DNA of 410 nucleotides. It comes from Escherichia coli. GTDB lineage: Bacteria; Pseudomonadota; Gammaproteobacteria; Enterobacterales; Enterobacteriaceae. Numbering within the stretch: the first letter of the stretch is position 1; each line of letters opens with the position of its first letter. Where the stretch lies: assembly GCF_003334305.1 (NCBI RefSeq), contig NZ_QOWS01000078.1; one strand, given 5' to 3'. The notes under the pieces are model-generated. The model did no database searches. It was not told the origin of the DNA and saw only the letters and a list, made by a program, of their open reading frames with translations. The translations under genes were made by a program, and so were the position numbers. Shown piece after piece: positions 1-410 of the stretch.

Positions 1-410
1 CTGGATATCGATATCCCGTATGCGACGGACCCGGCAGGAAACCGGCTGCCGGACCCGGAACTGCACCCGGACAGCACGCTCACGGCGTGGCCGGATAACC
101 GCATCGCGGAAGATGCGCACTATGTCTACCGCCACGATGAATACGGCAGGCTGGCGGAGAAGACGGACCTCATCCCGGAAGGGGTTATCCGGATGCACGA
201 CGAGCGGACCCACCACTACCATTACGACAGCCAGCACCGTCTGGTGTTCTACACGCGGATACAGCACGGCGAACCACAGGTGGAGAGCCGGTACCTCTAT
301 GACCCGCTGGGCCGCCGGACGGGAAAACGGGTATGGCGGCGGGAGCGTGACCTGACGGGGTGGATGTCGCTGTCGCGTAAACCGGAGGAGACCTGGTACG
401 GGTGGGACGG
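1..410 (+). CDS. Rhs-family / YD-repeat protein, conserved core region (internal fragment, partial at both 5' and 3' ends; frame 1, codon 1 = nt 1-3)
   Basis: Seen in sequence: frame +1 is open for all 136 complete codons with no stop. Codon usage is typical of a real enterobacterial-type gene (ctg, ccg, gcg, acg, cgg preferred). The translation contains three canonical YD-repeat motifs and the stretch [38 protein letters not shown], which I recognise from memory as the late core of E. coli Rhs proteins (RhsA/B/C-type). High GC (about 64%) fits Rhs cores. The paralog cannot be assigned from 410 bp, so no gene symbol is given. Confidence 0.93.
121..153 (+). other. YD-repeat motif (protein-level) [11 protein letters not shown]
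   Basis: Frame +1 translation of nt 121-153 gives [11 protein letters not shown], a variant of the Rhs/YD repeat consensus (Y.YD..GRL). Confidence 0.75.
217..243 (+). other. YD-repeat motif (protein-level) YHYDSQHRL
   Basis: Frame +1 translation of nt 217-243 gives Y-H-Y-D-S-Q-H-R-L, matching the Y.YD...RL repeat pattern. Confidence 0.75.
292..318 (+). other. YD-repeat motif (protein-level) YLYDPLGRR
   Basis: Frame +1 translation of nt 292-318 gives Y-L-Y-D-P-L-G-R-R, a near-consensus YD repeat (Y.YD..GR.). Confidence 0.8.

Follow-up and report, generated by a model that had tools for sequence, protein, structure and literature searches.

Results

An internal segment of an rhs gene

The stretch of DNA analysed here (410 bases, G+C = 64.1%; hereafter the window) is an internal fragment of the coding sequence of an Rhs core (Table 1). 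It corresponds to codons 911–1046 of a 1411-codon gene for an RHS element core protein, with the last 2 bases opening codon 1047. The frame that begins at base 1 (frame +1) translates bases 1–408 into 136 codons with zero stops, and frames +2 and +3 contain 1 and 5 stops, respectively. The G+C content at the three codon positions of frame +1 (0.68/0.44/0.81) is the usual pattern of a GC-rich bacterial gene, and fits this frame.

Table 1. Features of the window and of related rhs loci. Positions refer to the window or to the sequences of E. coli GE3 (L001), E6474 (L010) and S1 (L011).
Feature	Sequence	Positions	Strand	Basis or description
Internal fragment of Rhs core coding sequence	Window	1..410	+	Open frame, NF041261, DNA identity, codon-position-3 variation
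Degenerate YD repeat, aa 41–51	Window	121..153	+	Motif search; sub-threshold Pfam RHS_repeat match, aa 42–56
Degenerate YD repeat YHYDSQHRL, aa 73–81	Window	217..243	+	Motif search; sub-threshold Pfam RHS_repeat match, aa 72–82
YD repeat YLYDPLGRR, aa 98–106	Window	292..318	+	Motif search; sub-threshold matches to Pfam RHS_repeat (aa 96–108) and TIGR01643 (aa 95–110)
Spurious Thr/Arg-rich ORF, 111 aa, ATG start; no gene	Window	20..355	+ (frame +2)	No family match, not conserved
ORF of 30 aa	Window	185..277	-	
Antisense frame sharing the +1 codon boundaries, open throughout; no gene	Window	1..408	-	No stop, no NCBIfam match
Intact rhs CDS	L001	5271..9506	+	WP_149032354.1, 'RHS element core protein' (RefSeq)
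DNA identical to the window	L001	8001–8410		Inside the intact rhs CDS
ORF containing the open antisense frame	L001	7911..8924	-	337 codons
Second antisense ORF in rhs	L001	6069..7037	-	322 codons
AT-rich tip of rhs	L001	9045..9503	+	Residues 1259–1411
Gene for a hypothetical protein	L001	9484..9876	+	130 aa; overlaps the rhs 3' end by 23 bases
Region downstream of the intact rhs	L001	10055..15874		ISAs1-like ISEc1 transposase pseudogene and a second, frameshifted rhs, then ydcD
Partial copy of window 143–410	L001	14508..14775		In the second, frameshifted rhs; 90% identical
Chimeric CDS between yncH and nhoA	L010	5302..7527	+	741 aa, annotated TssI/VgrG
Remnant of window 13–97	L011	2501..2585		85 bases, 94% identical

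Frame +1 is missing from the list of ATG-to-stop ORFs made for the window, which holds just the 111-aa ORF in frame +2 and the 30-aa ORF on the minus strand, because ORFs that overrun either end of the window are by design left out of it. The original prediction was thus right that such a list would miss an open frame +1. The minus-strand frame running from base 408 to base 1, which has its codon boundaries in common with frame +1, likewise has zero stops across the window, a point that the original prediction did not raise. Openness alone therefore cannot identify the coding frame; homology and the pattern of substitutions do.

The frame +1 translation matched the NCBIfam model NF041261 (RHS element core protein) with E=1e-92 and 311.8 bits. 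The match covers translation residues 1–136, aligned to profile positions 909–1044 of 1261, and no NCBIfam match was found for frame +2 or for the antisense frame, in agreement with the prediction of a family match in frame +1 alone that spans the full window. The curated cutoff of this model, 2000 bits, is set for the whole protein and is a score that a 136-aa fragment cannot attain; the full parent protein of strain GE3 scores 2618.9 bits over profile positions 1–1261. Among about 15 billion public proteins, the GE3 protein falls into a cluster whose 6689 members are named Rhs proteins. We take the NCBIfam core model, and not the Pfam scan of the fragment, to be decisive for frame and family.

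A motif search found three repeats of the type YxYDxxxR[LR] in the window, the last of which, YLYDPLGRR, is aligned with YKYDPFGRR in the Rhs core structure 8qjc. The generic repeat models remained below threshold: Pfam RHS_repeat gave three matches to the 136-aa piece at E about 4 each, and TIGR01643 gave E=0.039 and 14.5 bits, short of its cutoff of 15.8. On the full GE3 parent protein TIGR01643 matched 7 stretches at 2.6e-46. Since the generic profiles are sub-threshold within the window, we assign the fragment to the family by its match to the E. coli-specific core model and by its DNA identity. The generic models are among those that the original prediction had named for its check.

The label 'Rhs core' needs a qualification. 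As used for E. coli, where it stands for the GC-rich and conserved portion of an rhs gene, it is apt, but the domain TIGR03696 (Rhs-associated core) is located outside the window: it occupies residues 1181–1258 of the GE3 parent protein, starting about 135 codons downstream of the window, so that window residues 911–1046 do not overlap it, and the NCBIfam search returned no TIGR03696 match in the window translation. The Pfam family PF03527, 'RHS protein', was found at residues 1155–1190 of the GE3 protein.

Identical and related copies

Of 5426 complete E. coli genomes searched by megablast, 3720 gave a match to the window; the median copy number per genome is 3, and in 175 records the best place is at least 99% identical. 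In GE3 the identical DNA lies inside the annotated rhs gene, the distance from the start of the CDS to the start of the window being 2730 = 910×3, so that codon 911 starts at window base 1; window and gene do not differ anywhere in codons 911–1046, and the frame is the same. Six other intact annotated CDSs are also in phase with frame +1 (offsets 2727, 2736, 2724, 2715, 2715 and 2715), and thus the annotated phase agrees with frame +1 in all seven intact CDSs.

The window's own copy might nevertheless be a decayed or orphan rhs fragment that is frameshifted, N-terminally truncated or fused, although correctly read in frame +1. Such copies do occur: we found a frameshifted pseudogene, a copy without its N-terminus, a chimera of a VgrG N-terminus with an Rhs core and an 85-base remnant, and in GE3 itself a second, frameshifted rhs 2.7 kb downstream of the intact one. 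Against this, the best 20 megablast matches, all 100% identical, all lie under CDSs named as Rhs proteins, and GE3, the sole 100%-identical copy examined in detail, carries an intact gene of 1411 codons. We therefore consider decay of this copy unlikely; were it the case, it would leave the ancestral frame unchanged.

To read the frame from substitutions, we aligned the window with eight copies of 90–98% identity (nine copies in total). The 59 distinct variable positions fall 7/10/42 on codon positions 1/2/3 of frame +1 (chi-square p=5e-9), and amino-acid identity to the window was highest in frame +1 in every copy compared; at about 90% DNA identity, for example, the values were 91.9%, 73.5% and 77.9% for frames +1, +2 and +3, respectively. 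No frame +1 stop was present in any of the nine copies, in contrast to frame +2, which has 2–4 stops in all eight diverged copies versus 1 in the window. The same preference is seen against RhsD of K-12, to which the window has about 90% DNA identity: 28 of the 40 nucleotide differences are at third codon positions, and amino-acid identity is 92%. The C-terminal tip, outside the window, varies between Rhs alleles. The core-model match, the phase of annotated CDSs and the excess of third-position variation all bear out the prediction that frame +1 is the true coding frame, and we encountered no evidence that contradicts this assignment.

The frame +2 and antisense frames

The frame +2 ORF has an ATG start, a stop and a length of 111 codons, and could in principle be a gene, whether the region's true one or one overprinted on rhs. 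Its product consists of 21.6% Thr and 19.8% Arg (41% together), much as the original prediction had described it. It has no NCBIfam match and no Pfam match even at E<=10, and a collection of about 15 billion public proteins lacks its exact sequence; we accordingly rejected it as a conserved protein. A conserved match for this product, which the original prediction had named as evidence against its own reading, was thus not found. The extra stops in the diverged copies mean that the 111-codon ORF is not conserved even in close relatives, and the identity of its product drops to 73–75% where frame +1 holds 92%. Other parts of the GE3 rhs gene also have stop-free runs of comparable length in frame +2 (98, 106 and 126 codons). 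Since close relatives have lost the ORF, the gene reading of frame +2 is in effect already refuted and has next to no probability left. The ORF is a by-product of the high G+C content of the gene, which reaches 81% at third codon positions.

The warning that annotation built on the ORF list would miscall the region is a theoretical one: gene callers run on full contigs pick frame +1, and the 111-aa product is unrecorded.

The antisense frame is open in the window and in all nine copies compared, and in GE3 it belongs to a long ORF of 337 codons, which would be expected if it encoded an overlapping antisense protein. Because its codon boundaries are those of frame +1, however, a stop in it requires a TTA, CTA or TCA codon in the sense strand. 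The window has none of these (its Leu codons are 8 CTG and 3 CTC, its Ser codons 3 AGC and 2 TCG), and the whole GE3 rhs gene has just 16 among 1411. The antisense frame is open because these codons are rare or absent. In shuffles of synonymous codons within the core, which preserve both the protein and its codon usage, the window was free of antisense stops in 33% of cases. The longest antisense stop-free run observed, 360 codons, compares with 311 +/- 86 in the shuffled sequences, 25% of which reach 360. The openness is thus expected from codon usage, and we rejected the frame as an overlapping gene. Moreover, no NCBIfam match was found for the antisense frame across the window, the 337-aa product is likewise missing from the collection of about 15 billion proteins, and amino-acid identity among the copies drops to the level seen in frame +2. 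An antisense protein is consequently most improbable; the open frame is a by-product of codon usage and not a gene. We attach hardly any credence to the idea that the rhs core harbours a translated overlapping gene, be it the antisense frame or the frame +2 ORF. A second antisense ORF is present in the GE3 rhs gene (Table 1).

We regard it as nearly certain that the window is an internal E. coli rhs segment of the RhsD-like group, read in frame +1 as residues 911–1046 of an Rhs polymorphic toxin of about 1411 residues. The same confidence applies to this explanation as a whole, which treats both the 111-aa ORF and the antisense frame as by-products.

The parent gene in E. coli GE3

The Rhs family is defined by an RHS-repeat core, a variable tip and a PxxxxDPxGL boundary between them (PMC4436062). 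The GE3 gene has this classical layout (PMC4436062): the core has a G+C content of 63.5%, the boundary motif, outside the window, reads PIRYTDPLGL (residues 1249–1258), and the 153-residue tip beyond it is AT-rich (43.7% G+C). The downstream ORF that overlaps the gene has a G+C content of 32.6%.

In the type VI secretion cluster around this 100%-identical copy, tssB/tssC, hcp and vgrG are directly followed by rhs and then by the small downstream ORF. The position of rhs after tss genes, hcp and vgrG points to delivery by a type VI secretion system, which we consider the probable route for the GE3 protein.

The tip gave a borderline Pfam match to the YkuD L,D-transpeptidase catalytic domain (E=7.2e-4, residues 1301–1392), and its assignment to YkuD rests on this single borderline match. 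It contains the stretch LHGGG...GCTR, which we take to resemble the active-site His and Cys motifs of YkuD. A sequence search for a solved homologue of residues 1259–1411 returned nothing significant. Judged from its sequence, the GE3 tip may be a cell-wall-targeting toxin. The small gene downstream, whose 130-aa product has no NCBIfam match, is presumably the cognate immunity gene, a putative role suggested by its position. Beyond it, an insertion-sequence pseudogene and the second, frameshifted rhs, with a partial copy of the window, precede ydcD (Table 1).

Place of the segment in the protein

YD/RHS repeats build a hollow beta-shell in Rhs proteins, in TcB/TcC and in teneurins. Window residues 911–1046 lie towards the end of the repeat region and before the Rhs-associated core domain and the toxin tip; by analogy with what is established for the family, they would belong to the YD-repeat shell. 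From homology to solved structures of Rhs and TcB/TcC proteins, the segment would be expected to supply beta-strands to the hollow shell, in its late part, around the variable C-terminal toxin. The gene product would be delivered by the type VI machinery, carrying its toxin tip, with protection probably provided by the presumed immunity ORF downstream.

Window residues 21–119 align weakly to solved Rhs cores of type VI secretion systems, namely that of Salmonella bongori (PDB 8qjb/8qjc/8qjd; E=4.6e-4 to 8qjc, residues 1179–1269 of 1530) and Tse5 of Pseudomonas aeruginosa (8cp6; E=0.014). The aligned region is the late shell and includes the YxYDPxGRR repeat; the fold of the window is a predicted one. 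TcB/TcC shell proteins of insecticidal toxin complexes and eukaryotic teneurins have the YD/RHS repeat type in common with Rhs proteins, and RHS repeats occur in Tc C proteins (PMC4436062). Their delivery systems, however, differ from those of Rhs, and the window has no significant sequence match to them.

The window is an ordinary piece of a long-known family, from which nothing in it departs. That Rhs genes of E. coli act as polymorphic toxins, and in which frame they are read, is textbook knowledge, and the window adds no new biology to it. Its practical point concerns annotation: on short windows, ATG-to-stop ORF lists miss genes that run through both ends, and in GC-rich genes they list out-of-frame ORFs instead, with the possible addition of an open antisense frame.

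Rearranged copies of the rhs core

Two loci in other E. coli strains carry rearranged relatives of the window. In E6474, the chimeric CDS between yncH and nhoA (Table 1) matches the N-terminal part of VgrG models with its residues 7–218. Its residues 212–581 match profile positions 887–1261 of the RHS core model, in phase with the homologue of the window, and are followed by a tip. This arrangement looks like an in-frame deletion that joined vgrG to the last third of rhs. In S1, the short remnant of the window adjoins a truncated nhoA (arylamine N-acetyltransferase) and lies beside an ISEc1 transposase and a truncated rhsD, a sign that the rhs locus has undergone a deletion or rearrangement.
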